Assembly (NCBI GenBank): GCA_963706285.1
Contig: CAVPLU010000008.1
Location: forward strand, 8,435-72,434
Length of the DNA: 64,000 nt
Source: Candidatus Bathyarchaeota archaeon
GTDB taxonomy: Archaea; Thermoproteota; Bathyarchaeia; 40CM-2-53-6
Direction: 5' to 3'
The position numbers and the translations under genes were made by a program. The notes under the pieces were generated by a model that saw only the letters and a program-made list of their open reading frames with translations, was not told the origin of the DNA and searched no databases. Shown here piece by piece: positions 1,051-56,795 of this stretch; position 1 is the stretch's first letter, and every line of letters starts with the position of its first letter.

Positions 1051-1103
1051 TTTCGAAATTCAGCGCTTGTTCTCCGACTGACTACAGGTATTCAGTAAAG
1101 GAC

Positions 1104-2430
1104 TTGGATCAGTACCTGTCAGCAGAGGCGTCTGTCAAGTATCAGGCAATTGTGGAAGGAGCTCTCGCTCAAGCTCTCGCACGCCAAGGCATTTGTCCGC
1201 CAAGTATCGCAGATGAGATCGCGAATGCAGCCAAAACCGTCACCGCGTCTGAAGTTGAGAGTGAGGAGAAGCGAGTAAGACATGACGTTCGTGCGCTTGT
1301 GAATGTTATCCAGCGAAAGGTTAGCGATGCCGCAAAACCTTACGTGCATCTGGGAGCAACATCCTACGACATTGTTGATACGGCCAGGGTTCTGAGATTT
1401 CGTAAGGCTGTCGAGGCCGTAATCATACCTGACATGGTCGCGCTTGAGAAAGTCTGGATCGATCTGGCAAGGCGTGAGAGAGATGAGGCCCAGATCGGCA
1501 GAACCCACGGTCAGTTTGCCGAGCCGATAACTTTCGGCTTCGCAATATCTCAATACGTTGACCGCTGGGGCTCACGGATCCTAGCACTCACACAGTCTGC
1601 ACGCGAACTGGTCGGGAAGTTCTCCGGAGCAGTTGGGGCTCACAACGCTCTGTCACTTCTTGACAGGCAAGCCAGAGGAACTGGAGAGGGACTTGCTGTC
1701 GTCATTGGGTCTCAAGCCGGCGCGCATATCAACTCAGATCGTCCCACCTGAGAGTTCCACAGATCTGATCCACGCCGTGATATCTGCATGGGGAGTTCTC
1801 GCGAACTTCGCGAGAGACATGCGTCATTTGCAGAGGTCAGAGATAGGCGAAGTTGGGGAACCCTTCGAGGAGGAGCAGGTCGGCTCGTCCACGATGCCCC
1901 AGAAACGCAACCCGATCACCTTCGAGAACGTCGAGAGTCTATGGAAAGAATTCGTTCCAAGAATGATTACGAAGTACCTGGATCAGGTCTCGGAGCATCA
2001 GAGGGATCTCACGAACTCGGCCTCGCAAAGATATGATGCCGAATTCCTTGTCGTATTCGACTTCTGCGTTAGGAGGATCACCAACGTGTCCCGAAAGCTC
2101 CGGGTTGACAGCAAGAACCTGAAGCGGAACCTTGAGCAAGCCTCTCCGTCGTTAGTGGCTGAGCCATTGTATGTTCTTCTTGCCTTGGCCGGTGATTCGC
2201 AGGCTCATGAACATGTCAGGAGGCTAAGTCTCGAATCATCCCGTGCAGGTCGACCGATAGTGGAGCTTGCATTATCGGACCAGTCCCTCAAACCATACCT
2301 GCAGAAGATCTCTCCTCTACAAATGGAAGCGATCCGGAACCCACTCAAGTACGTAGGAATTGCACCAGCGAAAGTGGACAAGGTTCTCGCATATTGGGAG
2401 GATAAACTGAAGCGAGAAGGGCTCTGGTGA
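1104..2430 (+). pseudogene. purB: Adenylosuccinate lyase, split by one +1 frame break near 1662 (true 5' end probably ~1067-1080)
   Basis: ORFs 1104-1751 (frame 0) and 1633-2430 (frame 1) together give a full-length PurB. Supporting motifs are DYRY, GATSYDIVDTA and the fumarate-lyase signature GSSTMPQKRNP. Homology switches frame at ...ALSLL|(T/D)GKPEELERDLL... Confidence 0.9.
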
Positions 2431-2472
2431 GGCCTCGACTCCCCAGATGCTGCTGAGAGACAGAATCCACCG

Positions 2473-3660
2473 ATGGGAGAATCTCCAAGAATGACCGAAT
2501 CGAAATACGAGAAGCTAGGCGTGGACATACACAAGAAAGGAATAGAGGTCTTCAAGCCGAGCATACGCGCACTGTTTTCGACCGCGTTCTGTGCCGTTAA
2601 GCAAGATCCACAATTCCCGGAATACGCGCTGATCGCTCACGCAGACGGTGCTGGTAGCAAACCAGTCCAGAGCTACCTCAACTACAAGGAGACTGGAGAG
2701 CTATCGGCATTCAGGGGGATCGGGCAAGATGTTGTCGCTATGAATCTGAATGACATAGCGTGTGTCGGCGCGGCTCCCATCAGCTTCGTTGACTACGTGG
2801 CGCTGAACAAATCCAAAATCCCCAAGGAGGATCTCCTCAGAATTCTCAACTCAGAATTCACTGAGCTGACCGAACTTCTACGAGCGCACGGCGTCACGTT
2901 GCCATTCGACGGCGGCGAGACTGCGGATCTTCCGGATCAGTTGTCGACGCTTGATGTTTCAGGATTCATGGAGGGCAGGGTCAAGTTGTCGAAGGTGATC
3001 ACGGGACAAGAAATCCGGTCAGGCAACAAGATCGTTGGGCTGCGAAGCGGAGGGAAGGCACGCTACGAGAGCAAGCTGAACAGCGGAATTATGTGCAATG
3101 GAATCACGCTAGCCAGACACTGCCTGATGGCTGGTGAGTACGAGAAGAAGTATCCGGAAATCCTAGGCAAGGATACGCCCGGATATTCTGGCCGTTACAG
3201 AGTCGGAGACTATGTGGATGAGCTGGAAATGACGGTTGATGCCGCAATCACTTCTCCAACGCGCATCTTCGCTCCAGTAGTTTTCAAAATCCTCGACACT
3301 GTCGGCTCCTCGGTAACTGGGCTCGTGCACAACACAGGCGGCGGACAGACGAAATGCCTCAAACTAGGAAAAGGACTACGATACGTCAAACACCCCAAAC
3401 ACCTCACCCAGCAACCAGATCCCATCTTCACTATCATACAGAAGGAGTCAGGCGAGTCGTGGCGAGACATGTATCAGAACTTCAACATGGGAGTCGGGTT
3501 CGAAGTCATTCTAGAGCAGGACGCCGTTGATCCGGTGCTCAGTATCGCTGAGAGCTTCGGAGTTGAAGCCAGAGAGATAGGTCACGTTGAATCTAGTCCT
3601 GATGGAAATCAGGTTGTCATCGAGAGCAATCTCGGGAAATTTGTTTACGACCAAATATAG
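2473..3660 (+). CDS. purM: AIR synthase (phosphoribosylformylglycinamidine cyclo-ligase), long form
   Basis: 395-aa ORF of the PurM superfamily (KYEKLGVD, AHADGAGSK, DVVAMNLNDIACVGA, GGETAD). Operon position is between purB and purS. ATG 2491 is an alternative start. Confidence 0.82.
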   Translation: MGESPRMTESKYEKLGVDIHKKGIEVFKPSIRALFSTAFCAVKQDPQFPEYALIAHADGAGSKPVQSYLNYKETGELSAFRGIGQDVVAMNLNDIACVGAAPISFVDYVALNKSKIPKEDLLRILNSEFTELTELLRAHGVTLPFDGGETADLPDQLSTLDVSGFMEGRVKLSKVITGQEIRSGNKIVGLRSGGKARYESKLNSGIMCNGITLARHCLMAGEYEKKYPEILGKDTPGYSGRYRVGDYVDELEMTVDAAITSPTRIFAPVVFKILDTVGSSVTGLVHNTGGGQTKCLKLGKGLRYVKHPKHLTQQPDPIFTIIQKESGESWRDMYQNFNMGVGFEVILEQDAVDPVLSIAESFGVEAREIGHVESSPDGNQVVIESNLGKFVYDQI

Positions 3661-3682
3661 TAGTCATGGTTAGGGTGTGAGT

Positions 3683-3943
3683 ATGCTCTATCGAGTCAAG
3701 ATCGTGGTGCGACCTCGTGAGGGTGTCTCTGATCCGGAAGGAGAGACGTTAAGCCTAAGACTGAAGCGGAAGGGAATCCAAGGACTGAGCAGAATCAGAT
3801 CCGGGAAGTATTGGGAAGTCTATCTCGAATCTAGCTCAAGAGAAGAAGCTGAAGAAAGAGCTCGACAGATCTACGGTGGCCCGCCAACCATGAATCCGGT
3901 GAAGGATGATGCTCAGGTCATAGCGATCGAGGAAGTCGGATGA
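3683..3943 (+). CDS. purS: FGAM synthase subunit PurS
   Basis: About 86 aa, MLYRVKIVVRPREGVSDPEG, a typical PurS N-terminus. GGTG lies 8 nt upstream of ATG 3683. The ORF track extends to GTG 3677. Confidence 0.88.
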   Translation: MLYRVKIVVRPREGVSDPEGETLSLRLKRKGIQGLSRIRSGKYWEVYLESSSREEAEERARQIYGGPPTMNPVKDDAQVIAIEEVG

Positions 3944-13467: not shown

Positions 13468-13575
13468 CCACACTCAAATCGTTCAACAAAACTGGATCCA
13501 GCACCGATCAGCTAGAATACTCTCAAGTCCTCGTAGAGAAGTGGAGATCTCGACCAAGTCACGGAGCTGAAACAG

Positions 13576-14826
13576 ATGGCGTATGTGACTGGACTCATTT
13601 GTACAAGATGCGGGAGATCGTACTCGCCGAAGGATCATGTGCTCACATGCAGGGAAGATGAAGGAAGACTAGACGTAGAGTACGATTACGATTCGATGGC
13701 GAACAAGATCAGTCGAGAAGCATTTGAACGCCGCAAAGGCGGGCTGTGGAAATATCATGAGCTTCTGCCGATTGAGAATGAAGAGAATATTGTGACTCTT
13801 GGAGAAGTCCAGACTCCGCTCATTCGATGTAAGAATTTGGGCAAGATTCTTGGAATGAGGCGCCTGTACCTCAAGGATGAGACAAAGAACCCGACAGCCT
13901 CATTCAAGGATCGCCCTATGACGGTTGGCGTATCGAAGGCTGTTGAGCTGGGATTCAATACGACCGTCTCAGCTTCGAGCGGGAACGCGGCCGCGGCGCT
14001 AGCAGCCTACTCCGCTCGGGCAGGACTCGCATGCTACACCTTTGTCCCGGAGAAAGCGAGTCAGGGCAAGATAGCTCAGCTCAGTATGTTCGGTGCACAC
14101 GTCGTCAGACTGAGAGGACTAGAAAGCGGTGTCGACCCCACAGTCACCATGTTAAGACTCGTCTGCAAACGGTTCGGTTGGTATCCCTGCCCAAGCTTTG
14201 CGCTCTTCAATCCATATCAGGCGGAGGGACCGAAGACCATGTCATACGAGATTGCTGAACAGCTTGGCTGGACGACACCTGACTGGGTGTTCGCGGGAGT
14301 CGGCAGCGGCGCCCTGCTCGCCGGAAACTGGAAGGGTTTCCGTGAATTCAAACGCCTTGGTCTCGTGAAAGGTGCACCTCGCATGGTTGCTGTCCAATCT
14401 ACTGGGTGTGCACCAGTTGTCAGGGCATTTGAGGAGCAGATGGACCCAAACAAGATAGTGCCATGGGAACATCCAGATTCAATCGCGACGGGCTTGATGG
14501 ATCCTCTTCCGTGGGACGGGGATGCCGCACTGAAAGCGCTGCACGATTCATCAGGCACGGCCGTGAAAGTCACGAACGAAGAGATACTTGACGCACAGAG
14601 AACCCTAGCAAAGACCGAAGGAATATTCGCAGAACCCTCTGGAGTCGCAGTCCTGGCAGGTCTTACAAGACTGAGAAATCAGGGCGCGGTCGCAAGCGAT
14701 GACTGCGTAGTACTCGAGATTACAGGTAGTGGTTTGAAAGACTTGAACGTGATCGGATCAGCAGAGGCTCCGTTGATTGATCCAAACATCGAAGACCTGA
14801 AGAGAGTCCTCAAGCTGAGGGCGTAA
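13576..14826 (+). CDS. thrC: Threonine synthase
   Basis: 416 aa with an N-terminal CxxC Zn-ribbon-like segment, PLP-lysine context SFKDRPM, and SASSGNAAAALAAY. GGAG lies upstream of the ATG. Confidence 0.88.
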   Translation: MAYVTGLICTRCGRSYSPKDHVLTCREDEGRLDVEYDYDSMANKISREAFERRKGGLWKYHELLPIENEENIVTLGEVQTPLIRCKNLGKILGMRRLYLKDETKNPTASFKDRPMTVGVSKAVELGFNTTVSASSGNAAAALAAYSARAGLACYTFVPEKASQGKIAQLSMFGAHVVRLRGLESGVDPTVTMLRLVCKRFGWYPCPSFALFNPYQAEGPKTMSYEIAEQLGWTTPDWVFAGVGSGALLAGNWKGFREFKRLGLVKGAPRMVAVQSTGCAPVVRAFEEQMDPNKIVPWEHPDSIATGLMDPLPWDGDAALKALHDSSGTAVKVTNEEILDAQRTLAKTEGIFAEPSGVAVLAGLTRLRNQGAVASDDCVVLEITGSGLKDLNVIGSAEAPLIDPNIEDLKRVLKLRA

Positions 14827-15946: not shown

Positions 15947-16099
15947 CGTCCTCTCATTCTCCTACTGGCTCTGGTGTGGAACGCCCAGCTGTCTCGCTCT
16001 AAAGAATTGCGTGAAATCTATGATCGATGTAGGGAGTGGATGCAAGCTTGATAAGTGGTACTAGCTCAATCTGAGCACTCCCTCGGAGTGCGGGTCTGG

Positions 16100-17059
16100 T
16101 TGCCCGGTAATGGCATAGTAGTTGTAGCGCTCGGCGGCAACGCGATTCTCAGACGAGGCGAGAAGGGTACATTCGAAGAGCAGTACCGGAACGTCTGCGA
16201 CACTGTGAAGCGCATCGCGGATCTTGTGCAGAGCGGGTACCAGGTCGTAGTGACTCATGGCAATGGGCCGCAAGTCGGAGCAACAGTCCTGAGACATGAA
16301 GCTGCGAAGAATATTGTCCCTCCGTTTCCTTTGGATGCGTGTGGTGCGGAGACGCAGGGTTTCATCGGTTACATGATCCAGCAGGCTCTTCGAAACGAGC
16401 TGAAAGAAGCGCGGCTTGGACAGGTACATTGTGACACTGGTTACTAGAGTCATTGTCGATCCAGACGACGAGGCGTTCAAGAATCCAACAAAGCCCGTCG
16501 GTCCGTTCTATACGAAGGAAGAAGCGGAGAAGATCCGCTCTCAGCGGCCCGATCTTGTTGTGAAAGAAGACGCCGGCAGAGGCTACCGCAGGATGGTCCC
16601 GTCTCCAGATCCGAAGATAATTGCCGAGCGACTCGCCATAAGAGCCTTGGTTGACAAAGGTTTCGTTGTCGTCGCGTGTGGCGGTGGAGGTATCCCAATC
16701 GTGGAGGAAGGCACTCAGGCTCGAGGTGTTGAGGCCGTAATCGACAAGGATCTTGCAGGACAGAGATTGGCCACACTTGATAGGTGCTTCAGTTTTTGTG
16801 ATTCTCACCGATATTGACGGTGCATATCTGAACTTTGGCACTCCTGAGCAAACGTTGATCGAGCATGCAACTCCTGAACAATTGGAGCAGTACACGAAAG
16901 AAGGCCACTTCAAAGAAGGCAGTATGTCACCTAAGATCGCGGCCGTCACTGAGATTTGTTCAAGAGGGTGGGCAGAGAGCCATCATAGCTGAACTGAGCA
17001 AGCTCAGGGAAGCTATGCAGGGAAAAAGTGGAACTCAGGTAACGCGAGCAAGAACGTAA
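16100..17059 (+). pseudogene. arcC: Carbamate kinase interrupted by three +1 frame breaks
   Basis: Four consecutive frames (2,0,1,2) carry VVVALGGNAI...THGNGPQVG | [28 protein letters not shown]...GGGGIP | [19 protein letters not shown]...GSMSPKIAAVT | RFVQEGGQRAIIAEL. The breaks are at about 16425, 16779 and 16951. Confidence 0.85.
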
Positions 17060-17420: not shown

Positions 17421-17732
17421 TGGTCCTGTGAAAAGTAGTACATGATTATCAATCTCTGATGTTAGGCATCCCGCGTCGAAAGTTAAAGATATCTGGACAT
17501 GTTCTCGGAACCCTGCTATTCCAACTCAAAAAAAATATGGTTCGATGCGGCCATTGACACACCTCAGTAAATGACCATTCCCAGACGATGCAAACTTTTT
17601 CTCAGGAACATCCTCGGCCGAAGTTAGCGAGCTGCAATGCATGGATTCTTCAGAAGCTGTCGATGTCCTAATAGCCGAGAACATCATCTGCTGGCTGGAT
17701 CAAATCTGACCGAGCAACAGCAGGCGTCAGTA

Positions 17733-18401
17733 ATGCCTTTGAAAGCGATACTCATTGACATGGATGGAACGATCACCAAATTCAACCTCGACTACATGTG
17801 GATGCGCCGAGCCGCATTGCAGATGCTTGAAGAGGCAGGTCTCTCGCGTCCGAACTTCGGCGACCAAATGAGCATCTACGCTATGCTCAATGAACTACGA
17901 GGTTCAATCCCTGACGAGAAATTCGACGAGATGAGGAAACGCATCTATGACAGGGTTAGGACGATCGAGGTTAATGCGGCTGGGCATGCTGAGGTGATGC
18001 CAGGCGCGAAAGAGGCTCTAAACGAACTCAGGCAAATGAAGAAGAAGATAGTCATCGTCACAAACAACGGAAGGTTGGGCACAGATCGAACCCTTGAGAG
18101 ACTAGATCTGCTTGCTATGTTCGACGCGGTCCTTACGAGGGACGACGTTGATGAACTGAAGCCGGATCCAAGGATGTTGTTGAAGGCCTTGAATTTGGCG
18201 GGCGTGAAGGCAGATGAGGCCATCTTTGTTGGCGACGCTATCATCGACATTAAGGCCGCCAAGGCGGCGTCGGTCAGGTGTGTAGCTGTTCCAAGTGGCC
18301 CCTTTCCTGCAACTCGGCTAATGCAGGAAGAGCCAGATTTCATCGTTGGGTCCTTGCTGGATGTCCCTGAGCTCGTGCGGCGCCTCGACCAAAGCGCCTA
18401 G
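17733..18401 (+). CDS. HAD-superfamily phosphatase (phosphoglycolate-phosphatase-like)
   Basis: MPLKAILIDMDGTIT (DxDGT), VTNNG and VGDAIIDIKAAKAA motifs. ATG 17733 is preferred over the longer ORF from 17637. Confidence 0.8.
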   Translation: MPLKAILIDMDGTITKFNLDYMWMRRAALQMLEEAGLSRPNFGDQMSIYAMLNELRGSIPDEKFDEMRKRIYDRVRTIEVNAAGHAEVMPGAKEALNELRQMKKKIVIVTNNGRLGTDRTLERLDLLAMFDAVLTRDDVDELKPDPRMLLKALNLAGVKADEAIFVGDAIIDIKAAKAASVRCVAVPSGPFPATRLMQEEPDFIVGSLLDVPELVRRLDQSA

Positions 18402-34140: not shown

Positions 34141-35566
34141 CTAGCCTCCCAGTTTGACTTTTCGAAGACGTATTGGTGGTCCCCCATGCCATACTGGAGC
34201 TCCTTGCATTGGTTCGCCTTTTCCACATGTGGCCGCCTCGTATTCCACGGTCTTTCCAACAGCATCCACACTGCCGTAGAGTCCCGGTGTAGTGATCTCG
34301 AGAATCGGGTTCCTTAGGGGGCTTGTGATCTCTCCTTTCTCGATCAGGTATGCTTCGAGTCCTACGTATCTCTGATTGTAGCGTCTGTCGTCAATATTCC
34401 ATTCCATGAATGTCTTGATGAAAACGCCCTTGCTGATGTCTTCGATCAACTCTTCGTCAGTGTGGTCGCCTGGAAGCATGTACGTGTTCGCCATTCTGAT
34501 GATAGGTTCCCTATCGTAGCTTACGGCTCTAGCCGCTCCGTTGCTGCTCACACCGAGTTCTGCAGCTGTTTCGCGATTCTGTAAGAATCCTGCGATAATT
34601 CCATTCTTGATTAGAGTTCTTCTGCTTGCTCGCACGCCCTCTTCATCGTACTGGTAGAAGCCGTACGAGTTTGGAACGGTAGGGTCATCTACAACGGTGA
34701 CGGCTTCCGTGCCAATTCGATGCCCGATCATGTCGGGCTTGATGTAGGATTCTCCAGCCTGGGCGGCTTCTCTGCCTAAGATTCTGTCTGCTTCCTGAGG
34801 ATGTCCACAGGATTCGTGGCAAATGATGCCAGTGACCTCCGATCCGAGAACTAGATCCATCTCCTCTTGGGCGGCTGGTTTTGCTTCACGAAGAATCTTC
34901 CCCAGCGTTGCCGCCTCTTCGGAAACATACTTCGAGGGATTCCATTCCTCGAGTCGTTCCCATCCGCCCGTCTCGCCTTTCTCGCCGATTCTCTGGATCG
35001 TTCCTTTCCCGGGCACAGTTGCAGTAAGGAGAAACAGCAAACCGATCCTGGAGGCTACCCCGTGAATCTTCGAGCCTTCGCTGTTAGCGAAGTATCGGTC
35101 GGTCATGTCGTCCATCAGAACAAGCGTCCGAGAAGGAAGATCTCACCTTCACAACATCAGGGCTTAGGTTCTTTTCGATGTCTTCGAGGACCCGTACTTT
35201 CTCCTCGATCGTAATATCGAGAAGTGATCTTCGCGCTTTCGTCTCCCAGTTTGCCTGCTCTGCCTTCTCCTCTGACAGGCGTATTGGTTTGGTGACAAGT
35301 CTCTTCGACGCTTTCGCCGTTCTGCATGCGATATCAACAACTTCACTCAAAGATTCCCTAGAGAGATCGTTTGTGGACGCAAATCCGAGCGCACCATCGA
35401 CAAGCACGCGGACCCCGATACCTTCCGCCTTGGCCAGCTGAACCGGCTCTGGCGCTCCGTTGGTTAGAGTGACTCCGCTGCCCGAGTCGATGTGAAGCCT
35501 TGCTTCAGCATATTCCACTCCTCTCGCAGAAGCAGAATCAACCGCATAGCGAACAAGTTCTTCCAT
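34141..35566 (-). pseudogene. tldD: TldD metalloprotease split by one +1 frame break (~35125)
   Basis: ORF 35084-35566 is the TldD N-terminus and ORF 34141-35115 is the remainder with the HESCGHPQEAD metal site. Homology is continuous as ...VVKVRSSFS(D/T)LVLMDDMTDRYFANSEG... if one nt is skipped. Confidence 0.85.
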
Positions 35567-36453: not shown

Positions 36454-37458
36454 TTGAATAAGCGACTGGATGAATTGCTGCTCACAACTACGGACACCGG
36501 TAGCCTGCCGATCTTCGACGATTTCAATGGTGACCGAACGAACTTCGAGGGGGCGATACTCGACAAGCTTTCGGTAGGCTTGGACTATCCATGCTATCCT
36601 CAGCTTCAAGGCTCGCCCTCCGATCCCACGAATATGGGTCTACAGTTTCTGATCCCGCTCTCCAAACTTGAGCCTAAGATTCAGATCAGAGGAGAGGAGG
36701 CTACGCTTCTGTCAGACGAGATCAAGTCTCCGTCTGAGCCGATCGGCGTGGAACGAGCGGAGCACTATGTGACGTTTCTTCGTGAGCACGATCTTCTCTC
36801 TAGGGTAAAGGGTCTGAAGGCCTGTATTACTGGTCCTTTCACACTTGCCAGTTATCTCAACAGAAGGAACCTGATGACATGTGGCACGTCAAAGCCCGAA
36901 GTCGTCAAAGTCCTCACCGAGGCTCTCAGCAACTCATGCAAACGCCTCAACGAGCTTGGATTCGACTTGGTCAACGTGGACGAGCCTTTCCTCTCAGTAA
37001 TGCTGGGACGCAAAGTGCTGTTCAAGTACGACGAGAAATTCGTCGTTGAGATGCTTGACACCATGATAGGTGAAATATCGGGGTTCTCCGCGATTCATGT
37101 CTGTGGCACGATAACTCCATTGGTCAAGAAGGTTCTACTGGAAAGCAAAGTCAACATCGTCGACCACGAGTTCGCAGGTTCTCCCAATAATCTACATGCA
37201 TACACCAGAGATGAGCTAGAAGGCTCCGGCAAGTTCCTTGCCTATGGCTGTGTTTCCTCAGTGAAGCCTCAAGTGGAGACCGTAGAAGAGATCTCAGCCT
37301 CGATACGCAATGCAATGAAGACCTTCGGTTCGCGGATAATCGTGAAGCCTGACTGTGGTTTTGGAGGCATGTTCGGCGTCTCAGGTGCCTATGAGGCTGT
37401 TCTGAAGAAACTTGAGAATATGGTAAAGGCGGCTCGAATGGTTGCGGAGTCAGGTTAA
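36454..37458 (+). CDS. Core-MetE-like (cobalamin-independent methionine synthase catalytic-domain-only) methyltransferase
   Basis: 334 aa with UROD/MetE-like TIM barrel motifs NVDEPFL, IHVCG and KPDCGFGGM (His/Cys/Cys Zn ligand pattern). TTG start. Confidence 0.68.
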   Translation: MNKRLDELLLTTTDTGSLPIFDDFNGDRTNFEGAILDKLSVGLDYPCYPQLQGSPSDPTNMGLQFLIPLSKLEPKIQIRGEEATLLSDEIKSPSEPIGVERAEHYVTFLREHDLLSRVKGLKACITGPFTLASYLNRRNLMTCGTSKPEVVKVLTEALSNSCKRLNELGFDLVNVDEPFLSVMLGRKVLFKYDEKFVVEMLDTMIGEISGFSAIHVCGTITPLVKKVLLESKVNIVDHEFAGSPNNLHAYTRDELEGSGKFLAYGCVSSVKPQVETVEEISASIRNAMKTFGSRIIVKPDCGFGGMFGVSGAYEAVLKKLENMVKAARMVAESG

Positions 37459-37602: not shown

Positions 37603-38673
37603 CTACTCTCCCGCTAGGAACACGTCTTTCTCTCTAATCACGCCGACGATCTTGTTCGATTCATCGGTGATGGGGATTGCTCTGAAACGATACTTCCGGA
37701 ATAGTGATTCGATGTCTCCTCGCATGGTAGTGGGTGCGACTGATACAACGTTCTTAGTCATGATGTCCTCGAGCTTCCTCGTAGGATCTGCCTGCAAGAG
37801 TTCGTTGATGTCTATGACGCCTCTCAGATTTTTCTCATCGTCGACAACGTAGATGTACATCGTGACATCGCAGCTGCGTGCTTCTTGTCGGAATCTCGTG
37901 AAAGCTTCTTCAACCGGTAGGTCGCCTGGGAATCCCAGGAAGCAATGCATGGCAAGAGTCGACGCTGGAACATCGTGTTGACTGAGGAGCTGATGGACTT
38001 TGGAAGCAACATCTCCTTTCAGTATCTTCAGGAATTCCTCAGAATCGTCTCGTGGAAGAATCGAGATTATGTTAGCGATTTCAGCGGGGGATAGATGAGC
38101 GAAGATTTGAGCGGCTCGTTCCGTGCTTGTTGAGGCTAGGATTTCTCTCTGGACTCTTGGTTCCGTTGCGTCAAGAGCGCCAGCGGCAACTCCACTATCC
38201 AGTGTGCTGAAGATGTGGATTCTCTCTTCATGGCTGAGTTCCTCAAGTATGTCAGCCAAGTCTTCAGGGTGAATGTCTTTGAGTCCGTCTCTTGTTATTG
38301 TGAGTTTCACGTCGCCCTTGGTGCCTGTGAGGTCTGTCGGCAAGGATTGTACATACCGCCATGGGATGATATCATCACATGAACCGTTTTCAAGAACAGA
38401 CTTGACAATTCTACCAAGTCCCAATCGGCGCATGAATGCGTGTCGGCCTACATCCGCTCCGACAACAAACAGCTTACTTTCCACGAAAAGAAGTTGTACG
38501 TCGTAGACAACTTCTACATCGAATCCTTCTGTGTCAAGGATTCTCTTATCAAGAATCTTATCTCTAAGCAGGAGCTGATCATTGCCGTGTTTGATCTCAG
38601 GATACTTGCCTTCAGGGGGATCTTGCACGAGAGTCTTCTCGGTCGTCACGCTAGACAACATTACTCCAAGCAA
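37603..38673 (-). CDS. Soluble PRC-barrel + MgtE N-domain + CBS-pair protein (no membrane domain)
   Basis: The sequence runs ILDKRILDTEGFDVEVVYDV (PRC-like), DLADILEELSHEERIHIFSTL...AEIANIISILP (MgtE_N), then two CBS motifs. The ORF is in frame with ORF 38677-38901 across a single TAA. Confidence 0.75.
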   Translation of the reverse strand: MLGVMLSSVTTEKTLVQDPPEGKYPEIKHGNDQLLLRDKILDKRILDTEGFDVEVVYDVQLLFVESKLFVVGADVGRHAFMRRLGLGRIVKSVLENGSCDDIIPWRYVQSLPTDLTGTKGDVKLTITRDGLKDIHPEDLADILEELSHEERIHIFSTLDSGVAAGALDATEPRVQREILASTSTERAAQIFAHLSPAEIANIISILPRDDSEEFLKILKGDVASKVHQLLSQHDVPASTLAMHCFLGFPGDLPVEEAFTRFRQEARSCDVTMYIYVVDDEKNLRGVIDINELLQADPTRKLEDIMTKNVVSVAPTTMRGDIESLFRKYRFRAIPITDESNKIVGVIREKDVFLAGE

Positions 38674-38676
38674 TGT

Positions 38677-38901
38677 TTAGGGAGGACGACCCAACGAGCG
38701 TTCGATGATCAGGCTTGTCACTTCAGCGTAGTGTGGATCGTCTCTGATGACTAGATCTTTCAGCTTGCCAATCGTGATGCCGCTCTGAGTTTTCACTTTC
38801 TTGTCAAGGATCTCAGTGAGGAGGAGATATCGTGCAGCCTTGTTTTCTCCGAGGGACGCCTTCTGAATGTACTCTCTGATCTGACTTGACTTCGTCGACA
38901 C
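38677..38901 (-). CDS. Small PRC-barrel-like protein (or N-terminal part of the downstream gene)
   Basis: 74 aa, ILDKKVKTQSGITIGKLKDLVIRDDPHYAEVTSLIIE. Same frame as 37603-38673, separated by TAA 38677-38679 plus one codon. Confidence 0.5.
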   Translation of the reverse strand: MSTKSSQIREYIQKASLGENKAARYLLLTEILDKKVKTQSGITIGKLKDLVIRDDPHYAEVTSLIIERSLGRPP

Positions 38902-44948: not shown

Positions 44949-45743
44949 ATGGTTAAAGAGAAGAGGGAAATATCCAGCAGACCGATTTGGACTGGAAGAA
45001 TTAGTATCGGTCTAGTGAATGTTCCAGTCAAACTCCATACGATGGTATTTGATAGGGGTGTCTCTTTCCATTTTCTGCACAAGGACGATGGCCAACCGCT
45101 GAAGTACGAGAGGGTTTGCACTAAAGACGGTCAAGTCGTTGCTTGGGAGAATGTCGTGAAGGGGTACGAGGTCAGCAAGGGTCGGTTTGTAGTCTTCCAG
45201 AAAGACGAATTGAATGCGGCAAGGCCGGAGTCAAATCAGACGATCCGCCTTCAGAAGTTTGTAGACTTCCTTTCGATCGATCCGATCTACCTCGATAGAT
45301 CCTACATTCTGGCGCCTGACAAGAGCGATGACGCCTACAGCCTTCTCTTGGGGACTCTTCAGAAAATGGGCAAGGCGGGTGTCGGGAGGATCACATTGCG
45401 GGAGAAGGAGTGTCCAGTTCTTGTGCATCCCTACAAGAACGCCCTAGTCTTGACCACTCTGCGATACGCAAGCGAGATCGCAGACCCCGCCCGGCTCGAA
45501 GAGCTGAAGACGCTTAAACAACCTAACCAGGAAGAGATCGCCCTCGCCAAGAAGATAGTATCAGATCTCTCAGGAGAATTCGACATAACAGAGTACAAAG
45601 ACGCCTACCAAGAAAAAGTGAAGGCTCTGATAGAGAAGAAGATGAAAGGTGAAACAATCGTCTACGAACAGCCCGTGAAGGAAGAAGCAAAGGAACTCAT
45701 GGTGGCCCTCCAGGAAACTCTCAAACAACTGAAGAAGAAATGA
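44949..45743 (+). CDS. ku: Ku DNA end-binding protein
   Basis: RPIWTGRISIGLVNVPVKLH...KGYEVSKGRFVVFQKDEL, a typical prokaryotic Ku core. 264 aa. Confidence 0.94.
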   Translation: MVKEKREISSRPIWTGRISIGLVNVPVKLHTMVFDRGVSFHFLHKDDGQPLKYERVCTKDGQVVAWENVVKGYEVSKGRFVVFQKDELNAARPESNQTIRLQKFVDFLSIDPIYLDRSYILAPDKSDDAYSLLLGTLQKMGKAGVGRITLREKECPVLVHPYKNALVLTTLRYASEIADPARLEELKTLKQPNQEEIALAKKIVSDLSGEFDITEYKDAYQEKVKALIEKKMKGETIVYEQPVKEEAKELMVALQETLKQLKKK

Positions 45744-47138
45744 GCCCCAACCGATACAGACCAATGCTCGCACAATCCGTGCCAGCACCCTTCACCTCCA
45801 AAGACTGGATCTTCGAGATCAAATGGGATGGCTTTAGGGCGATCAGCTACGTGGACGATGAGCTGAGAATAACGAGTAGAAATGGCACGGAGTTGAAGCA
45901 CAACTTCCCCGAACTTCAAGAATTGAAAGATCTAGCTCGCAACGTTGTGCTCGACGGCGAAATAGTTGTAATGAAAAATGGGAAAGCGGATTTCCAAGCA
46001 GTCTTAGAACGAAACAGAAGAACAACTTCTCTCGACATTGAATATCGATCCCAAGAATCTCCCGCAACATACGTAATCTTTGACATACTCGAAAAGGACG
46101 GCAATGCCCTCATCGGTCTTCCCTTAGTCGAAAGAAAACGAATCCTGAAAGAATCCGTAAGAGAAGGTCAACATGTCATACTATCGATCTATGAAGAAGA
46201 GGATGGAAGATCATACTACGATGCTGCCCTCAAACAGGGCATAGAAGGCGTAATAGCGAAGCGAAAAGATAGTCCATACGAACCTGGCGCTAGAAGCAAC
46301 AACTGGCTGAAGATAAAGTCCCTCACGTCCTGTGACTGTGTAATCTTCGGATATACGAGCGGAGAAGGCCGCAGGAAAGAGCGCTTTCGGGGCAATGATC
46401 CTGGGACTCTATGATGGCGGAACGCCAGTCTATGTTGGAAAGGTGGGTACAGGGTTCTCGGACGACGCAATGGAACTTCTGATGCAAGCATTTCAGGACT
46501 TGCGAATGAAGGAACCAACTCTCAGTAATGTTGACGTTTCACAACAGATTACTTGGCTTAAGCCGATTCTTGTTTGCGAGATCGTCTATCAAACAGTCAC
46601 GAAAGACCATAGACTCCGCATGCCAAGGTTCAGCAGATTGCGATCCGACAAAGCTCCGCTTGAATGCACGTTAGATCAAATAATGCCTACGGGCTTGCAG
46701 GAATACGTCTCTAAACGGGACTTTGGTCTCACCCCTGAACCCGCGGGTACTTTAGTGAGAGAGGAAGGCATGGCATTCGTTGTGCAGGAGCATCATGCCA
46801 GAAGGCTTCACTATGACTTCAGGCTGGAGAGGTTGGGAGTTCTGAAGAGCTGGGCCGTTCCAAAAGGAGTTCCCGAAAAACCCGGTGACAAGAGACTCGC
46901 GGTGGAGACTGAAGATCATCCGCTAGAATACAAAGAATTCGAAGGCACGATTCCTCAGGGGCAATATGGCGCCGGAACCGTCAAGACATGGGATAAAGGT
47001 TCATACAAACTCCTTGTATGGGATAAAGAAAAGATCGAGTTCATTCTCACTGGAGAAAGGCTTGACGGCAGATATGTCCTTGCGAGATTCAAGAAGGCAG
47101 GGCCGAAGCAGTGGCTTCTGATTAGAGCGAGGAATTGA
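45740..47138 (+). pseudogene. ligD: ATP-dependent DNA ligase fused to 3'-phosphoesterase (LigD Lig-PE), split by one +1 frame break (~46370-46392)
   Basis: ORF 45740-46414 has the adenylation motif EIKWDGFR, LDGEIV and GVIAKRKDSPY. ORF 46395-47138 continues with the OB domain (AMILGLYD...VGKVGTGF) and then the PE domain (FVVQEHHARRLHYDFRLE...WAVPKG). ATGA overlap with ku. Confidence 0.9.
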
Positions 47139-48129: not shown

Positions 48130-49377
48130 ATGCTTCATTTGAAACCGAGTAGAATGAAGAGGTTGTTTCTCACACTTGTCTTGGCGTTTGTCATATCTAC
48201 AGGTGCAAGTTCCGCGGCGGTGTCAATGCAGCCTGCATGGGCTGACTTTCCGGGGGATAATGGTAAGATCGTTTTCCACAGCACCCGCGCTGGCAACTAT
48301 GACATCTATACGATGAATACTGATGGCTCAGGAACAGTCAGACTAACAGATAACCCAAAAGATGACTATGACGCTGCGTACTCTTCGGACGGGAAGAAGA
48401 TAGCGTTCACAAGTACCCGAGACAATCCGAAAGGCCAGATCTACGTCATGAATGCTGACGGCTCAGGGGTAAACCGGCTGACGAACAACGCAGCAAGCGA
48501 TGGTTACGCCGTCTGGTCTCCTGACGGATCACGGCTCGCCTTTGAGAGTAACCGAACCGGCAACTTTGAGGTCTACGTCATGAATGCTGATGGTTCAGGG
48601 CAGATCAACCTGACGAATAATCCAGCGATCGATGGCTCCCCCGCTTGGTCTCCTGACGGCCAGAAGATAGCTTTCCACACGAATAGAGATGGCAACTGGC
48701 AGATCTACGCTATGAATGCTGATGGTTCAGGCCAGATCAACCTTACGAAGAAGTCGTCAAATGATCTCGACCCCAATTGGTCTCCAGACGGGTCAAGGTT
48801 AGTGTTCGGTAGCGGTAGGGATGGGAACTGGGAGATCTACGCTATGAATGCCGATGGTTCAAACCAAACGAGACTCACAGGCAATCCTGCATATGATAGG
48901 TGGCCAGCTTGGTCTCCTGACGGCCAGAAGATAGCTTTCCAAACGAATAGGGATAGTAACGATTGGGAGATCTATGTGATGAACGCTGCAGATGGTGCAG
49001 TGGTAAACAGGCTGACTAACTGGACGGGAGCCGACGGGAACCCGGCCTGGCAGCCACTCCCGACCTCCACTACAACCACTGCCACTACCAGTACCGAAGA
49101 GCAGGGGGACTACGTGAGTAGAGGCGAATTGTTCCTGTATTTGGGGATTCTGACAGCAGCATTTCTGGCAATAGCGCTCATAGGCAGAAGGGGAAGCCGT
49201 AGGCCCGCTCCGACACCCTCGATATTTCCAGCTGCTGCGCCCGTCACACCGACAGCCGCTCCTTACACGGTTTCGCAACCGTCGACCACAACCAAACACT
49301 GCAGCCAGTGTGGCTCAGAAATACCTGAAACAGCGAAATTCTGCACAATATGTGGCGCATCCCAACCCAGGAAATGA
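48130..49377 (+). CDS. Secreted/membrane-anchored PD40 (TolB-like) beta-propeller repeat protein with C-terminal TM helix and cytoplasmic Zn-ribbon
   Basis: Order of elements: signal peptide, about six repeats of SPDG..IAF.S.RDGN.EIY.MNADGSG...LT, a Thr-rich linker, TM LFLYLGILTAAFLAIALIG, and then CSQCGSEIPETAKFCTICG. Confidence 0.8.
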   Translation: MLHLKPSRMKRLFLTLVLAFVISTGASSAAVSMQPAWADFPGDNGKIVFHSTRAGNYDIYTMNTDGSGTVRLTDNPKDDYDAAYSSDGKKIAFTSTRDNPKGQIYVMNADGSGVNRLTNNAASDGYAVWSPDGSRLAFESNRTGNFEVYVMNADGSGQINLTNNPAIDGSPAWSPDGQKIAFHTNRDGNWQIYAMNADGSGQINLTKKSSNDLDPNWSPDGSRLVFGSGRDGNWEIYAMNADGSNQTRLTGNPAYDRWPAWSPDGQKIAFQTNRDSNDWEIYVMNAADGAVVNRLTNWTGADGNPAWQPLPTSTTTTATTSTEEQGDYVSRGELFLYLGILTAAFLAIALIGRRGSRRPAPTPSIFPAAAPVTPTAAPYTVSQPSTTTKHCSQCGSEIPETAKFCTICGASQPRK

Positions 49378-51063: not shown

Positions 51064-51747
51064 TCATTTGCTCGTGCAGGTGATTCTTGTTACGTACTTC
51101 ACCCAGTCCAAGCCAGGTCTTGTAGGTGCGACGAGTCTTGCGGGATATCCGTGTTCTACGGTCAATGGGAAATCTTCCGGCTTTCAGCGCAATAATGTTA
51201 TCCGCGTTTGCCACCTCATCCGAATTGAGCGTCATCTCGTATCCTGTGATGCTCTTGATTGTGACGTTAGCTAGGTTCTCGAGGGACACTCCCGCTTGGT
51301 TCAGAAGATAGATGAGCGGTATGCCTTCCCAGAGAACGTCGGCTGCCCACCCTGTTACGCATTGGATCTCTCAGAGTCTTCTGGACACTAGGCATAGCCT
51401 GCAAATCTTCTAAGGTGAATTCCAGCGACTTCGATACGTCTCCATCGATGGTCAGTCTGTAGTCGTTCGAGTCTATCGTGGTCGGTTCGATCTCCGTTCC
51501 ACGTCACTGGGAAACTGAAAGCCTCAGTTGTCGATGTAATTGGAGGAACTGTCGATATTGTCGATGTAGTCTGGGGTGCTGTTGAGATTGTCGATGTAGC
51601 CTGCGATGCGTTGATTGTCGTTGCTGTAGTCTGAGATGCAATAGGTACCTCTCCTGTCGTTTGTTCAAAAAACCACCATGACCCAGTCACAATAGCCACA
51701 GCCGCCAGGGGAATTAGCTTGACGAATTCTCTTCTTTCAAGTTTCAT
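51064..51747 (-). pseudogene. Tat-exported molybdopterin-binding (SUOX-fold, MsrP/YedY-like) oxidoreductase domain protein with three +1 frame breaks
   Basis: Four frames (0,2,1,0) read: MKLERREFVKL (RR signal), a Thr/Ser linker, ...PVTWN | EIEPTTIDSNDYRLTIDGDVSKSLEFTLEDLQAMPSVQKTL | (E/R)IQCVTGWAADVLWEGIPLIYLLNQAG...ALKA | [32 protein letters not shown]. The stop is at 51064. Confidence 0.75.
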
Positions 51748-52090
51748 GAGTCACACCAGCTCGCATTATGCGTGCCCAATCGCTGTTCGGAGAACAAATC
51801 GTGTAGCTATGAAGGTTGAGCCTCTCAACTTGCACGTCTCTACGATTCTGTTTTGCTTTCTCGGAGACTCAGTTGGCAGATGTTTCCATTACACGAAGAA
51901 CGGGAAACGTGGTTGCTTGTCTTCTCAGACTAGTACATACTACGAATAGTGGTGGTCTCAGCATTCTGGTAGCCATTCCCATCGTCAAACGTGACCTGAG
52001 CTGGCTCTTGGCCATTGTCAGGATTCTAAGTTGGTGCGTCGTCTTGAGCGTTTCATCCTTTCTATTTCGCAGTCGACGTAGCAGCGTTTC

Positions 52091-53059
52091 TCATCTGTTG
52101 GCATATTTGGTTGGAACGCATTTTCGAGATCTTGTATCAACACGAAACAGAGTCTTAACATTGAACCCGGTTGCTTTCCTCACATTTCTGACGCCTTGGT
52201 ATTCCGGTTTCTCGAGAACACAGAATACGTCTGAGATGTTGACATCTCGTTCCTTCAGCAGGGACACGAGAGGAGCAAGGGTTCCTCCAGTTGATATGGC
52301 ATCATCAATGAGGAGAATCTTGTCTCCCTTTGAAACGCCGTAGACCCAGTAGGTTCCGTGCTCGAATCCGGATGCGTAACTTGTTTTCGCAAGAAGTTTT
52401 GACGAGTCATGGAGGTTTCTCTTTCTGACAACTGCGAGCGGTTTGCCCTTGAGACTCGCGACCAGCTGAGCAATCGGAAGCCCAAACGATTCTGCCGTCA
52501 GAACTTTGTCTATGTCGTTCGGCGTTTGTTGGTGAATCATGTTTGCGATCCATTCCGACCAGAGAGGATTCGGCGGCGGAATGTTCTCGGTCAACGGGTT
52601 CACTATGTATCTGTACACTCGTCTTGAGCCTCCTCTATGCCACTTCAGTTCGACGACCTTGCTTTGCGAATAAGCTTCAACAATTTGCGTGATCATAGTT
52701 CTATCAAATTTCTTTTTCGTAGCGGCCGATTCTTGGAGTGGGCGATGGAAGCATGTTCGTGTTCCTAGGTGACAAGCGGGGCCTGTCTGATCGACCAAGT
52801 ACAGCAGAGTGTCTGCGTCACAGTCTACGAGAATCTCGATGATTCTCTGCACATTCCCGGATGTCTGCCCTTTCTTCCACAACTCCTGTCGCGATCTGCT
52901 CCAGTAGTGCGCGAAACCGGTTCTCACGGTCTCGTTGAGGGCTTTGGCATTCGCGTAGGCGACCATCAGAACTTCGCGTGTTGCATAGTCCTGCACCACA
53001 ACCGGGATAAGTCTCTGTTTCTCGAAAACCGTCTTGTATGCCAGTTGATCTATCTTCAA
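52091..53059 (-). CDS. hisI: Phosphoribosyl-AMP cyclohydrolase fused to a type I phosphoribosyltransferase (APRT-like) domain
   Basis: The N-domain has IPVVVQD...WSRSR..LW.KG.TSG and [25 protein letters not shown]. The C-domain has [10 protein letters not shown]...AVVRK and the PRPP loop [16 protein letters not shown] 53059 overlaps the hisF TGA. Confidence 0.85.
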
Positions 53060-53826
53060 AGTCTCATCTCGACTCCGTTCTGCTTTAGGTAGTTCTTCAC
53101 AGTGGGGATCGTGAAGGTTCCGTAGTGGAAGATAGACGCAGCCAGCGCTGCATCTGCGGACGTTTGATTGAACACTGCGAGGAAATGCTCCAGCATGCCG
53201 CATCCACCGCTGGCGATCACCGGCACCCTAACAGATGAACAGACCGCGTTCGTAAGCGGAAGGTCGAAGCCATCCAAGGTTCCATCGCGATCAATCGAGG
53301 TAAGCAGTATCTCGCCTGCGCCTGCTTGTTCGCATCGACGCGCCCATTCCAGCGCGTCCAGCTGAGTTTTGGTTCTAGCGCCGTAAGTTTGAACTTGGAA
53401 CCACTCCTTCCCGTCACGGAGAACCCGGGTCGCATCTATGGCAACTACAACGCATTGTTGTCCGAAGATGTCAGCGATCTCAGTGATAAGCGAAGGTTTC
53501 TCAACGGCGGCGGTGTTCACAGCCACCTTATCTGCTCCTGAGCATAGAATCTCTCTCACGTCATCCAGATCTCGAATACCGCCGCCTACTGTGAATGGTA
53601 TGTCTAGCACGCGTGCGGCGTCCTTGACTAGGTTGATGCGGATCTCCCTCTTTTCAACGGACGCCGTTATGTCCAAGAAGACAAGTTCGTCGGCTCCTTG
53701 GTCGCGGTAGAGGGAGGCAAGCTCAACTGGGTCGCCTGCATCCCTTAGGTCAACGAAATGTTTCCCCTTCACGACGCGTCCATCTCTAACGTCGAGACAT
53801 GGAATGATGCGTTTCGCCAGAGGCAT
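53056..53826 (-). CDS. hisF: Imidazole glycerol phosphate synthase cyclase subunit
   Basis: [17 protein letters not shown] and [11 protein letters not shown]. 256 aa. Confidence 0.95.
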
Positions 53827-54550: not shown

Positions 54551-54557
54551 CGTTAGG

Positions 54558-55157
54558 TTACCTTCTCAGGATCTTCGCAAAGTTGCGAAGCAACATCGCG
54601 CCCACTTTCCCAGATTTCTCCGGGTGGAACTGAGTACCAATCAGGTTCCCGGACTCGATGACCGACGGAAACGTTACTCCGTAGTCTGTTTTTGCTACAA
54701 CTATCGATTCATCCGTGCGCGGGTAGTACGAATGGACGAAGTAGCACCAGGAGCCTTCATTCACTCCTTCAAGGATCACATTAGGCTTGATGAATTCCAG
54801 TTGGTTCCATCCCATGTGCGGTATCTTCACTGAATCCGGCAGCCGCACAACCTCACCTTTGATTAGGCTCAACCCGTCGGACGGCCCCTCCTCGCTTGAG
54901 TCGAGAATCAGCTGCATGCCGAGGCAGATCCCGAGGACGGGTCGTCCTTGCGCTGCAATTTCAGAGATTCGATTCCGATACGGTCTCAGTCTCATCATTG
55001 CAGGTTTGAAGTTGCCAACACCCGGCAGAACTAGGCCGTCAAATTCAGAGCTTTCTGGGATTTCGTCAACGACTTTGGCGTCGAGCCCTTGGCGTCTTAG
55101 GGCTAGGGCTATGTTGAACAGGTTTCCAGCACCGTAGTCGAAGACTGCGACGCTCAA
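54558..55157 (-). CDS. hisH: Imidazole glycerol phosphate synthase glutaminase subunit
   Basis: VAVFDYGAGNLFN, GICLGMQL and QFHPEKS. TTG start abuts the hisB stop. Confidence 0.94.
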   Translation of the reverse strand: MSVAVFDYGAGNLFNIALALRRQGLDAKVVDEIPESSEFDGLVLPGVGNFKPAMMRLRPYRNRISEIAAQGRPVLGICLGMQLILDSSEEGPSDGLSLIKGEVVRLPDSVKIPHMGWNQLEFIKPNVILEGVNEGSWCYFVHSYYPRTDESIVVAKTDYGVTFPSVIESGNLIGTQFHPEKSGKVGAMLLRNFAKILRR

Positions 55158-55745
55158 CTACACTGCTCCCTTTGAGCTTGCAGGCCCGCTTTGACGCGGG
55201 TCGATCGTGCATGCTTGTCTGAGGGAAAGGGCAAGCGCCTTGAACGCCGCCTCGACATTGTGGTGGTCGTTCTCGCCGTACTGGACTCTGATATGCAGGC
55301 TGGCTTTGAGCGATGTCGCGAACGATTGGATGAAGTGGGCTATGTCCTCGTTCTTCAGTCCCTCGATCGCTGCGTTCGCGATCTTCAACTCAACAGATGA
55401 ATACGGACGACGCGCCAAGTCCACGGACGCGAGAGCTAATGCATCATCCATTGGCACCAAAGCCCAGCCAAAGCGTGTAATCCCGTTTCTTTCGCCGAGC
55501 GCCTTGGATATGGTTTCTCCAAGCGTGATCGCCGTATCCTCCACGATGTGGTGTGAGAGATCGCCGGAAGCCTCGACTTGGATATCCACAAGACTGTGAG
55601 TTGCAAGTGTAACGAGAAGATGATCGAGGAACGGGATCGTAGTCCTAACCTGTGCCTTTCCAGTTCCGTCAATTTCGACCTTTGCGTCCACTTTGGTCTC
55701 TCTTGTGGTTCTCACCAGACTTCCTGTTCGAGACAAATCAATCAC
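55158..55745 (-). CDS. hisB: Imidazoleglycerol-phosphate dehydratase
   Basis: RTTRETKV...DHHIVEDTAI...GENDHHNVEA. GTG start overlaps the upstream TGA (GTGA). Confidence 0.94.
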   Translation of the reverse strand: MIDLSRTGSLVRTTRETKVDAKVEIDGTGKAQVRTTIPFLDHLLVTLATHSLVDIQVEASGDLSHHIVEDTAITLGETISKALGERNGITRFGWALVPMDDALALASVDLARRPYSSVELKIANAAIEGLKNEDIAHFIQSFATSLKASLHIRVQYGENDHHNVEAAFKALALSLRQACTIDPRQSGPASSKGAV

Positions 55746-56795
55746 CTAACACTCGACAGAAGAAAGGGCAGATCATTTACCGACTGCAGGATAGCGTCAG
55801 CACCGAGTTTCGCAAGTGCGGCCGCTCTATGCGGGCTATTGGCCAGGGGTGTTACACCGCAGAATGTGAACTTGCCAAGTGCCCGATTCGCGTTATTGGT
55901 CATCATTAGGTCTTCCACGGAATCGCCGACATAGAGGATACTTTTGGAGGCTTTCGCATGGTCAGCTGCGAGCAAGAGAGATTCCGGACTGGGTTTGCCT
56001 GGAATTGGTTGTTTCGCGTTGATATGTGGGTCGTGGTCCTCAAGGAAGATCATCGGCCCATCCTGAAAGAATCTCATTAGTTCGCCGAGGGTTTGTTCGG
56101 TCCCTAGGCGTGACCTGCCCGATACAATACCTATCGTACCCTTCGGCACAAGTGAGGACAACAGCTGCAACGTTTCCGCTGATACGATGACCTTTTCGGA
56201 ATCTATCAGACCTCTCTTGCAGCCAACGACGGGGTCTAGCCCGTGAAGTTGCTTGATGAGTTCAGGACCATAGTAGTATTCGTCGAAGACTCTGCTAAGC
56301 GAACTTGACACCGGCCCGCCTGGATAACCTAGTCTCTCGAGAAGTTCGTGTATGTTTGCTGCCGATTTCGCGGACTTCCGCTTTGATTTCATCCGCGAAT
56401 GAGGCGAATCCATGCGAAGCTCTGTTCAATAGACCCAACACTCGGGCGGGAAACGCTTCAGAGTCAAGCACTTCTTGGAGTCCTACGACTCTCTTGCTCT
56501 GATCATGAAGGCATTTCTTGACTTCCTCGCTTGGAAGATTGGCTACGATGCTGACTAGGATGGCTGCCGTCGCGTCGATGTCATTGTTGTATTGCCCTGT
56601 TGCTCTAAGAGCTTCAACAAGTTGCTGCGTTGGGAAAGTCGGACTAAGCTTCAGCCCAAGAATGCTGGAAAGGAAATGGGAGACGGTAACCTCTATCGCT
56701 CGGTCATATGAGCCACTTGAATCGATCAGGACGCCGTCTACATCAAAGATGACTGCGTCAGTGAGTCCAAGCGCGTCCATCTTTGAGACACGCAA
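55742..56795 (-). pseudogene. HAD-superfamily phosphatase embedded in the his operon (candidate histidinol-phosphate phosphatase), split by one +1 frame break
   Basis: ORF 56295-56795 carries motif I VIFDVDGVLIDS. ORF 55742-56413 carries IVSGRS and YVGDSVEDL. The frames differ by +1 and the overlap window is 56295-56413. Confidence 0.7.

Follow-up and report, generated by a model that had tools for sequence, protein, structure and literature searches.

Ten single-base reading-frame breaks in six conserved genes of a Bathyarchaeia contig and their probable origin in consensus errors

Apparent single-base frameshifts in otherwise good genes have been described in several settings. Programmed +1 frameshifting, known from prfB (CUU-UGA-C), antizyme, the yeast Ty1 element (CUU-AGG-C) and Euplotes (AAA-UAA), takes place in a defined slippery or pausing context, the A site usually being occupied by a stop or rare codon, and its sites are conserved among orthologs. 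Instability of mononucleotide runs, as in the poly-A tracts of endosymbionts and the mutator phenotype of Pyrobaculum aerophilum, needs long homopolymers. Decaying genomes, such as those of Mycobacterium leprae and of recent symbionts, carry a mixture of deletions, insertions and nonsense mutations, with a relaxed ratio of non-synonymous to synonymous substitution rates (dN/dS). Here we describe ten reading-frame breaks in six conserved genes (purB, arcC, tldD, ligD, the gene for an MsrP-like molybdopterin oxidoreductase and a his-operon gene for a HAD-type hydrolase) within a 64,000-nucleotide stretch of the Candidatus Bathyarchaeota archaeon contig CAVPLU010000008.1 (assembly GCA_963706285.1, positions 8,435 to 72,434). 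This stretch, hereafter the window, is a Bathyarchaeia genome fragment whose habitat is wetland, soil or sediment.

The breaks are most similar to the indel errors of draft assemblies, long-read or hybrid, that are recognized by comparison with relatives (for example, Kastor, PMC12007338) and in which single-base indels likewise split conserved genes into overlapping open reading frames (ORFs), are unevenly spread and affect genes that are intact in close relatives and regain their full length once a base is removed; unlike those errors, all ten indels in the window are insertions, and none lies in a homopolymer of four or more. As in programmed +1 frameshifting, one nucleotide has to be skipped and selection acts on a conserved frame downstream, but there is neither a defined context nor conservation of the sites among orthologs. 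Transcriptional slippage and run instability also produce apparent single-base frameshifts in otherwise good genes, whereas the runs seen here are of 1-3 nucleotides, with no long A/T homopolymer. The presence of many broken genes in a short stretch, some with several lesions, recalls the pseudogenes of decaying genomes, but the six genes show a single lesion type and normal constraint. On the sequence comparisons presented below, the ten breaks are likely to be insertion-type consensus errors in the deposited contig of a metagenome-assembled genome (MAG), concentrated in a few weak patches.

Extra bases at the ten breaks

The window was compared with the contigs of 12 metagenome runs aligned on it (labeled X: X1-X4, X19, X25, X37-X39 and others), with assembled relatives (labeled L) and with ortholog proteins (labeled P, e.g., P0001, P0121, P0305/P0306 and P0320). 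The runs that contain 31-mers of the window are wetland, soil, sediment, peat, freshwater and groundwater metagenomes or have no organism label. Nucleotide identity to the window is 96% for L089, 92-93% for L009, 91.5-95% for the 29.9-kb contig carrying L091 and L092, and 92% for L001, the nearest named relative (a MAG labeled “uncultured Candidatus Bathyarchaeia archaeon”); for the relative contig CAYGWT010000091.1, 29.6 kb were compared. A previous reading of the window, made without database searches (hereafter the sequence-only reading), had listed ten breaks in these six genes, and all of them exist, within about 25 nt of where it had placed them:

purB (adenylosuccinate lyase, about 1035-2430), + strand: break at 1657 (1656-1661), one extra T in CACTTCTTG
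Carbamate kinase gene (arcC, about 16091-17059), + strand: break 1 at 16402 (16402-16406), extra base in CTGAAAGAAG
Carbamate kinase gene, + strand: break 2 at 16778 (16774-16778), extra base in CACACTTGAT
Carbamate kinase gene, + strand: break 3 at 16951 (16949-16951), extra base in GTCACTGAGA
tldD (34141-35566), - strand: break at 35143/35144, extra base, coding strand GGT[G]AGATCT
ligD (ligase and phosphoesterase domains, 45740-47138), + strand: break at 46379 (46376-46380), extra base in AGGAAAGAGC
Molybdopterin oxidoreductase gene (MsrP/YedY-like, 51067-51747), - strand: break 1 at 51489/51490, coding strand GAT[C]GAACCG
Molybdopterin oxidoreductase gene, - strand: break 2 at 51368-51371, coding strand CTGAGA[G]ATCC
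Molybdopterin oxidoreductase gene, - strand: break 3 at 51167-51175, coding strand TTTCCCATTG
Gene for HAD-type hydrolase of the his operon (TIGR01548 family, 55742-56795), - strand: break at 56371/56372, extra base, coding strand GTCCGCGAA

At each of these sites, the window has one base more than its relatives, and translation must skip one base (+1). Pairs of split, overlapping ORFs are present in all six genes, every pair being related by +1, and alignment with orthologs and relatives, a check that the sequence-only reading had proposed for its claim of uniform polarity, places one skipped base at all ten junctions and a -1 or +2 step at none. In the run contigs, one letter is left out at 1657, 16403/6, 16774/7, 16949/51, 35144, 46376-80, 51368, 51489/90, 51173/5 and 56372. 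At nearly every site, the gap is shown by the full depth of the spanning contigs; where part of the depth lacks it, contigs end there and the loose end continues without the extra base, as in X25 at 1660. Once a single base is dropped at every break, each of the six reconstructed proteins aligns with its family profile over the full length and, as had been claimed for the homologous segments, the corrected frames of the six genes contain no stop codons.

The break in purB separates ORFs 1104-1751 and 1633-2430. The base at 1657 is left out in X2 and X4, the loose ends of X3 and X25 continue without the extra T, and the reconstruction (...GAHNALSLLTGKPEELE) agrees with the 464-amino-acid (aa) orthologs P0305/P0306 and matches TIGR00928 over positions 2-435 of 436. 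In arcC, the extra base of break 1 is absent from all X1-X4 contigs and from L009 and L092, and the run contigs, L009 and L092 likewise lack the extra bases of breaks 2 and 3. Skipping all three yields a match to TIGR00746 over positions 3-308 of 309 (427 bits), and the gene is single-frame in 80 of the 80 metagenome loci retrieved. Orthologs of TldD (474 aa, identity up to 98%) are uninterrupted; in the 98% identical P0001, residues 1-141 align to 35566-35144 and residues 142-474 to 35142-34144, with exactly one base skipped, and the same gap is found in L089, L090, L091, X2 and X4.

At the ligD site, every spanning contig of X2, X4, X25 and X19 is without one base, one X25 contig differing from the window by 2 mismatches and the gap only; the reconstruction (...GEGRRKSAFGAMILG) agrees with P0320, and its profile matches extend over positions 1-301 of 302 in the ligase domain and 1-154 of 156 in the phosphoesterase domain. 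The oxidoreductase with three skipped bases is covered end to end by more than 100 single-frame orthologs, and the orthologs that lack its extra bases number over 120. At its break 3, a tblastn search with P0121 switches frame, and one base is left out at 51173/51175 in X37 and X19. The N-terminal linker of this protein (51540-51620, - strand) is a Thr/Ser/Pro-rich repeat, TSTISTAPQTTSTISTVPPITSTT, that differs in length from the linker of L001 by 30 nt (19 + 11). The gap in the HAD gene is seen in L001 and X3, and its reconstruction matches TIGR01548 over positions 1-197 of 197. Being absent from the run contigs, the assembled relatives and the orthologs, the extra bases at all ten breaks are, as judged from these alignments, specific to the window.

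Polarity, clustering and sequence context

The ratio of insertions to deletions among the breaks is 10:0 (p = 0.001 if both are equally likely). The sequence-only reading had also called the distribution patchy, which is borne out by two separate groups of three breaks, each within 1 kb (p = 0.0015 if placement is uniform), and by the genes that it had named as free of breaks: comparison with relatives revealed no frame break in nrdJ or the thermosome gene, and no unpaired indel of purL is listed against the run contigs. Its statement that none of these genes needs a -1 shift is correct for the six that it named but cannot be extended to the window as a whole, where a gene for a protein with MgtE_N and CBS domains lacks one base at 38677-38680 (see below).

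Long homopolymers had been reported to be missing from the junctions, and indeed none of the ten breaks lies at a run of four or more, their contexts being runs of 1-3. The window contains 82 runs of at least 5 (72 of 5, nine of 6 and one of 8), none of them at a break. The codon, the skipped base and the next codon are CTT-C-TTG, CTG-A-AAG, CTT-G-ATA, ACT-G-AGA and GTG-A-GAT at sites 1-5 and AAA-G-AGC, GAT-C-GAA, AGA-G-ATC, CCC-A-TTG and GTC-C-GCG at sites 6-10. This tabulation, which the sequence-only reading had suggested as a way to find a slippery context, shows ten differing contexts with no shared slippery motif. Two short motifs, GAGATC/GATCTC near four sites and TCGA near five, were considered as common elements and discarded, as neither is significant once the number of k-mers tested is taken into account.

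These contexts bear on the proposal that the extra bases are real and decoded, with the ribosome skipping one nucleotide (+1 or quadruplet decoding) or the mRNA losing a base, and with full-length proteins as the outcome. All six named genes need +1, and the stop-free corrected frames under normal purifying selection are what such recoding predicts. It is nevertheless very improbable, since the ten contexts have nothing in common, none of the k-mers near the sites remains significant after multiple-testing correction, and the 0 frame runs on for 11-33 codons past the junction (in the nine of the ten breaks that were measured), so that no stop close by or pause signal marks the sites. In programmed +1 frameshifting, a site conserved in orthologs and a common slippery codon, with an A-site codon that is a stop or slowly decoded, would be expected; here, no site is conserved even in relatives that are locally 96-98% identical, and all ten would have to be newly born. 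Transcriptional slippage would lack a homopolymer to act on, the MgtE_N/CBS gene needs a -1 step too, and similar extra bases are found in the non-coding DNA beside the oxidoreductase gene. A suppressor tRNA was considered and set aside, as the window contains no tRNA gene, a weak argument given that one could lie elsewhere in the genome. A broader version, in which the strain tolerates +1 frameshifts genome-wide irrespective of context, or edits its mRNA by single-base deletion, and thus skips bases at unrelated non-slippery sites, is hardly credible, and we know of neither process in archaea.

Selection, non-coding indels and the origin of the extra bases

The dN/dS values of the carbamate kinase gene (0.107, and 0.05 past the first break), of tldD (0.124, and 0.106 after the break) and of the part of the HAD gene after the break (0.17) equal those of intact neighbouring genes (0.05-0.22). 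Higher values were obtained for the oxidoreductase gene (0.62) and for the part of the HAD gene before the break (0.95), both from small counts; they were treated as uninformative, the counts of the former being from a fast-evolving low-complexity linker and those of the latter from a less conserved N-terminal part. Relative to L009, the carbamate kinase has changes at 10 of its 313 residues, a smaller number than in the intact neighbours, and its gene shows 11 non-synonymous differences, both branches taken together. Indels usually occur at about one per ten substitutions or more rarely. Decay is not indicated for arcC: on this ratio, three neutral insertions in 0.95 kb should have brought dozens of substitutions, most of them non-synonymous, and such substitutions are absent. 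By these comparisons, the broken genes have no decay signature and are under purifying selection (arcC, tldD and the HAD gene after its break).

These results also weigh on the possibility that this strain truly carries the extra bases, as frameshift mutations of recent origin, by which six genes were freshly inactivated as pseudogenes or captured as deleterious variants. In the non-coding DNA of this population, one-base indels are a frequent form of natural variation, the breaks are part of the deposited record and are called there as separate fragment genes, and the window holds other lesions that look real or may be so, namely, a truncated glycerol-kinase remnant (60974-61315), a TAA at 37456 in a Meth_synt_2 gene, 24 codons before the stop of a relative, and a -1/+1 pair with a stop codon in the MgtE_N/CBS gene; in addition, no gap is listed for X4 contigs that overlap 56372 and 38653-38680. 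We still consider such mutations an unlikely source of the ten breaks. Decay is expected to raise dN/dS and to mix lesion types, whereas dN/dS is not raised in arcC, tldD or the C-terminal part of the HAD gene, and the six genes contain insertions only. Strains that are 96-98% identical lack the insertions, and a free-living sediment archaeon with about 10% of its genes broken would be highly exceptional. The pur and his operons that contain purB and the HAD gene are otherwise intact and constrained; this setting, which the sequence-only reading had put forward against pseudogenization, agrees with the dN/dS values.

Around the oxidoreductase gene, the extra bases continue into non-coding DNA:

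51755, 51828/9, 51835/6, 51844 and 51855: five single extra bases in non-coding DNA upstream of the oxidoreductase gene
52077: sixth non-coding extra base near the oxidoreductase gene

The five one-base gaps at 51755-51855 are identical in contigs of X2, X25, X37 and X19, and these extra bases form one patch with the three breaks of the oxidoreductase gene. Over 51722-51928 (207 nt), the X19 contig shows 5 mismatches and 5 one-base gaps (substitutions, 2.4%), and such a 1:1 ratio of gaps to substitutions, with a single polarity, is unlike natural divergence. Since these bases lie in non-coding DNA, no translational mechanism explains the patch. The best run holds at most 14% of the window's 31-mers in this dense patch, compared with about 50% elsewhere, and for its core (51801-51882), none of the 5 sampled 31-mers was found in any run.

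The fragment proteins produced by the breaks (TldD, 160 and 324 aa; LigD, 224 and 247 aa; PurB, 215 aa) are present in the public collection and are encoded on one contig only (113,209 bp, NCBI/ENA), and so the breaks are part of the deposited record and are seen in no other assembly. The sequence-only reading had offered insertion errors in weakly covered patches, gene decay and +1 recoding without ranking them. The first is the best supported: an artefact best accounts for the absence of the extra bases from relatives, their one polarity and patchiness, the spread into non-coding DNA beside the oxidoreductase gene and the lack of a decay signature, and, as expected of an assembly or consensus indel error, the relatives are intact and removal of the base restores the gene. 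The extra bases would stem from sequencing or from the making of the consensus and not from the cell, and the organism most likely would have intact versions of all six genes, purB, arcC, tldD, ligD, the MsrP-like molybdoenzyme gene and the his-operon HAD hydrolase gene.

Several points count against consensus errors. The extra bases are judged by relatives, none of those examined is the same strain, and the reads of the source sample were not found among the public runs, the best of which held at most 51% of the window's 31-mers (in four run searches). Compared with CAYGWT010000091.1, the non-coding one-base indels are balanced, with about 13 extra and about 13 lacking in 29.6 kb, which indicates that most intergenic differences are natural. 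An argument from polarity in non-coding DNA was accordingly abandoned for the window at large, given the ratio of about 13:13 on the 29.9-kb relative contig, and kept for the oxidoreductase patch. The excess of extra bases near the broken genes is modest (11:2, versus 8:11 elsewhere; p = 0.03). At the HAD break, an X4 contig (depth, 3) overlaps 56372 with no gap listed; this contig may span the site or end there. Finally, an insertion-only profile away from homopolymers is atypical for Nanopore or PacBio high-fidelity (HiFi) data, so that no platform that would fit can be named.

Regarding the platform, other assemblies of close relatives consist mostly of contigs of 1-30 kb, and it is plausible on that ground that long reads or a hybrid approach lie behind the 113-kb contig. 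Raw PacBio continuous long reads are insertion-rich. Residual errors in Nanopore assemblies are deletion-rich and linked to homopolymers, and about 92% of HiFi errors are homopolymer indels (PMC12007338); the ten breaks, with insertions only and no run of four or more, do not have such a homopolymer-linked profile. The literature yielded nothing decisive on a sequencing platform with the profile seen here.

If the extra bases are errors, the record under-reports purine synthesis, carbamate kinase, TldD, the non-homologous end joining (NHEJ) ligase, the molybdoenzyme and the his-operon phosphatase; fragment proteins have already entered the protein databases, and metabolic reconstructions or pseudogene counts based on the record would be wrong. 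The outcome is a warning on this record, together with a precise list of suspect bases. If, on the other hand, the bases are real, constrained genes would carry ten young +1 lesions, and either an unknown way of decoding them or an unusual mutational process that makes insertions only would have to be invoked.

Other lesions, rejected candidates and gene content of the window

A seventh interrupted gene, which the sequence-only reading had not listed, encodes the MgtE_N/CBS-domain protein:

37603-38901, - strand: MgtE_N/CBS-domain gene
38653-38680, - strand: lesion in this gene, with one base missing at 38677-38680 and one extra base at 38653

The stretch of 27 nt between the two indels, which opens with TAA (38679-38677), is out of frame. 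Where the 432-aa ortholog from L090 reads RPPLNVPWSNVINVTT, the window encodes RPP followed by a stop, then LNIAWSNVV in another frame and then VTT. Both indels are found in X2 and X3; a contig of X4 (depth, 3) overlaps the site, and neither is listed for it. A close -1/+1 pair is typical of local misalignment in a consensus, and the lesion is possibly related to the ten breaks. It could also be a natural gene split, which is conceivable because a TTG codon lies 3 nt after the stop.

An eleventh break, suspected at about 1076 near the start of purB, was rejected, as four contigs of three runs (X3, X25 and X4) span 984-1333 without a gap. The 464-aa orthologs start with MPEDL..., and the corresponding codon of the window (1035-1037) is ATC, replaced in the divergent X4 strain by ATG (1037 C>G). 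There is no ATG, GTG or TTG upstream of the conserved SPTDYRY motif, and an AGGAG sequence lies just upstream of the ATC (window 1026-1040). Because X3 (depth, 8) and X25 (depth, 41) carry the same ATC, it represents a natural variant and not a frameshift; purB may use a non-canonical ATC start, or loss of the start codon may be polymorphic in the population.

Candidate breaks in two further genes were discarded because the indel lies upstream of the likely true start. The first is at 13552 in thrC, the product of which has 416 aa in the window and 452 aa in many relatives; one-base indels occur at 13513, 13530 and 13552 (within 13468-13576), and the 36-codon extension, which is outside the family profile and poorly conserved in more distant relatives, is probably non-coding. 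The second is at 17692 in another HAD hydrolase gene (17637-18401). Within 17637-17735, the annotated protein of a relative begins with MDSSEAVDVLIAENIVCLAGL..., which is in another frame in the window, one base lacking at 17692; the likely true start (MPLKAILIDMDGT) is downstream, and this difference is probably variation in the 5' untranslated region rather than a break.

A break of opposite polarity at 60402-61201 was also rejected, the overlapping ORFs being a complete gene for a CoA-binding protein and an unrelated ORF. The ORF at 60974-61315 (- strand) encodes only the first ~97 of the 245 positions of the FGGY_N domain, with a glycerol-kinase-like N terminus (FGGY carbohydrate kinase), followed by a stop. 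This ORF is a truncated remnant: no continuation of it was found in any frame, and the CoA-binding gene follows on the other strand. Near the remnant, relatives show one-base differences, with a letter put in, at 60898 and 61282. The Meth_synt_2 (methionine-synthase-like) gene has a TAA at 37456-37458 where L090 has CAG and 24 more codons; the sequence past the TAA can still be aligned (AYLSQELVHYQGD versus SYLSKELVNYQGD), and the TAA is either a premature stop or natural variation of the C-terminal tail.

The other gene content of the window is as follows:

Pur operon: purC, purB, purM-like, purS, purL and purQ
Opposite strand to the pur operon: folD, two PurN-like genes, purD and purF
thrC, a gene for OTCase and the carbamate kinase gene
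Thermosome gene, serS, nrdJ and the SSB-tldD-pmbA group
NHEJ cluster: LigD primase-polymerase, Ku and LigD ligase-phosphoesterase
his operon

The ORF at 48130-49377 encodes a PD40 beta-propeller repeat protein with a zinc ribbon at its C terminus, and in this gene many metagenome contigs jump among the internal repeats, with joints that skip 226-439 nt. In the last gene of the his operon (52091-53203, - strand), PRA-CH (hisI) and a phosphoribosyltransferase domain appear to be fused; about 150 nt of this ORF coincide with the end of the his gene before it, and the real start is probably internal.

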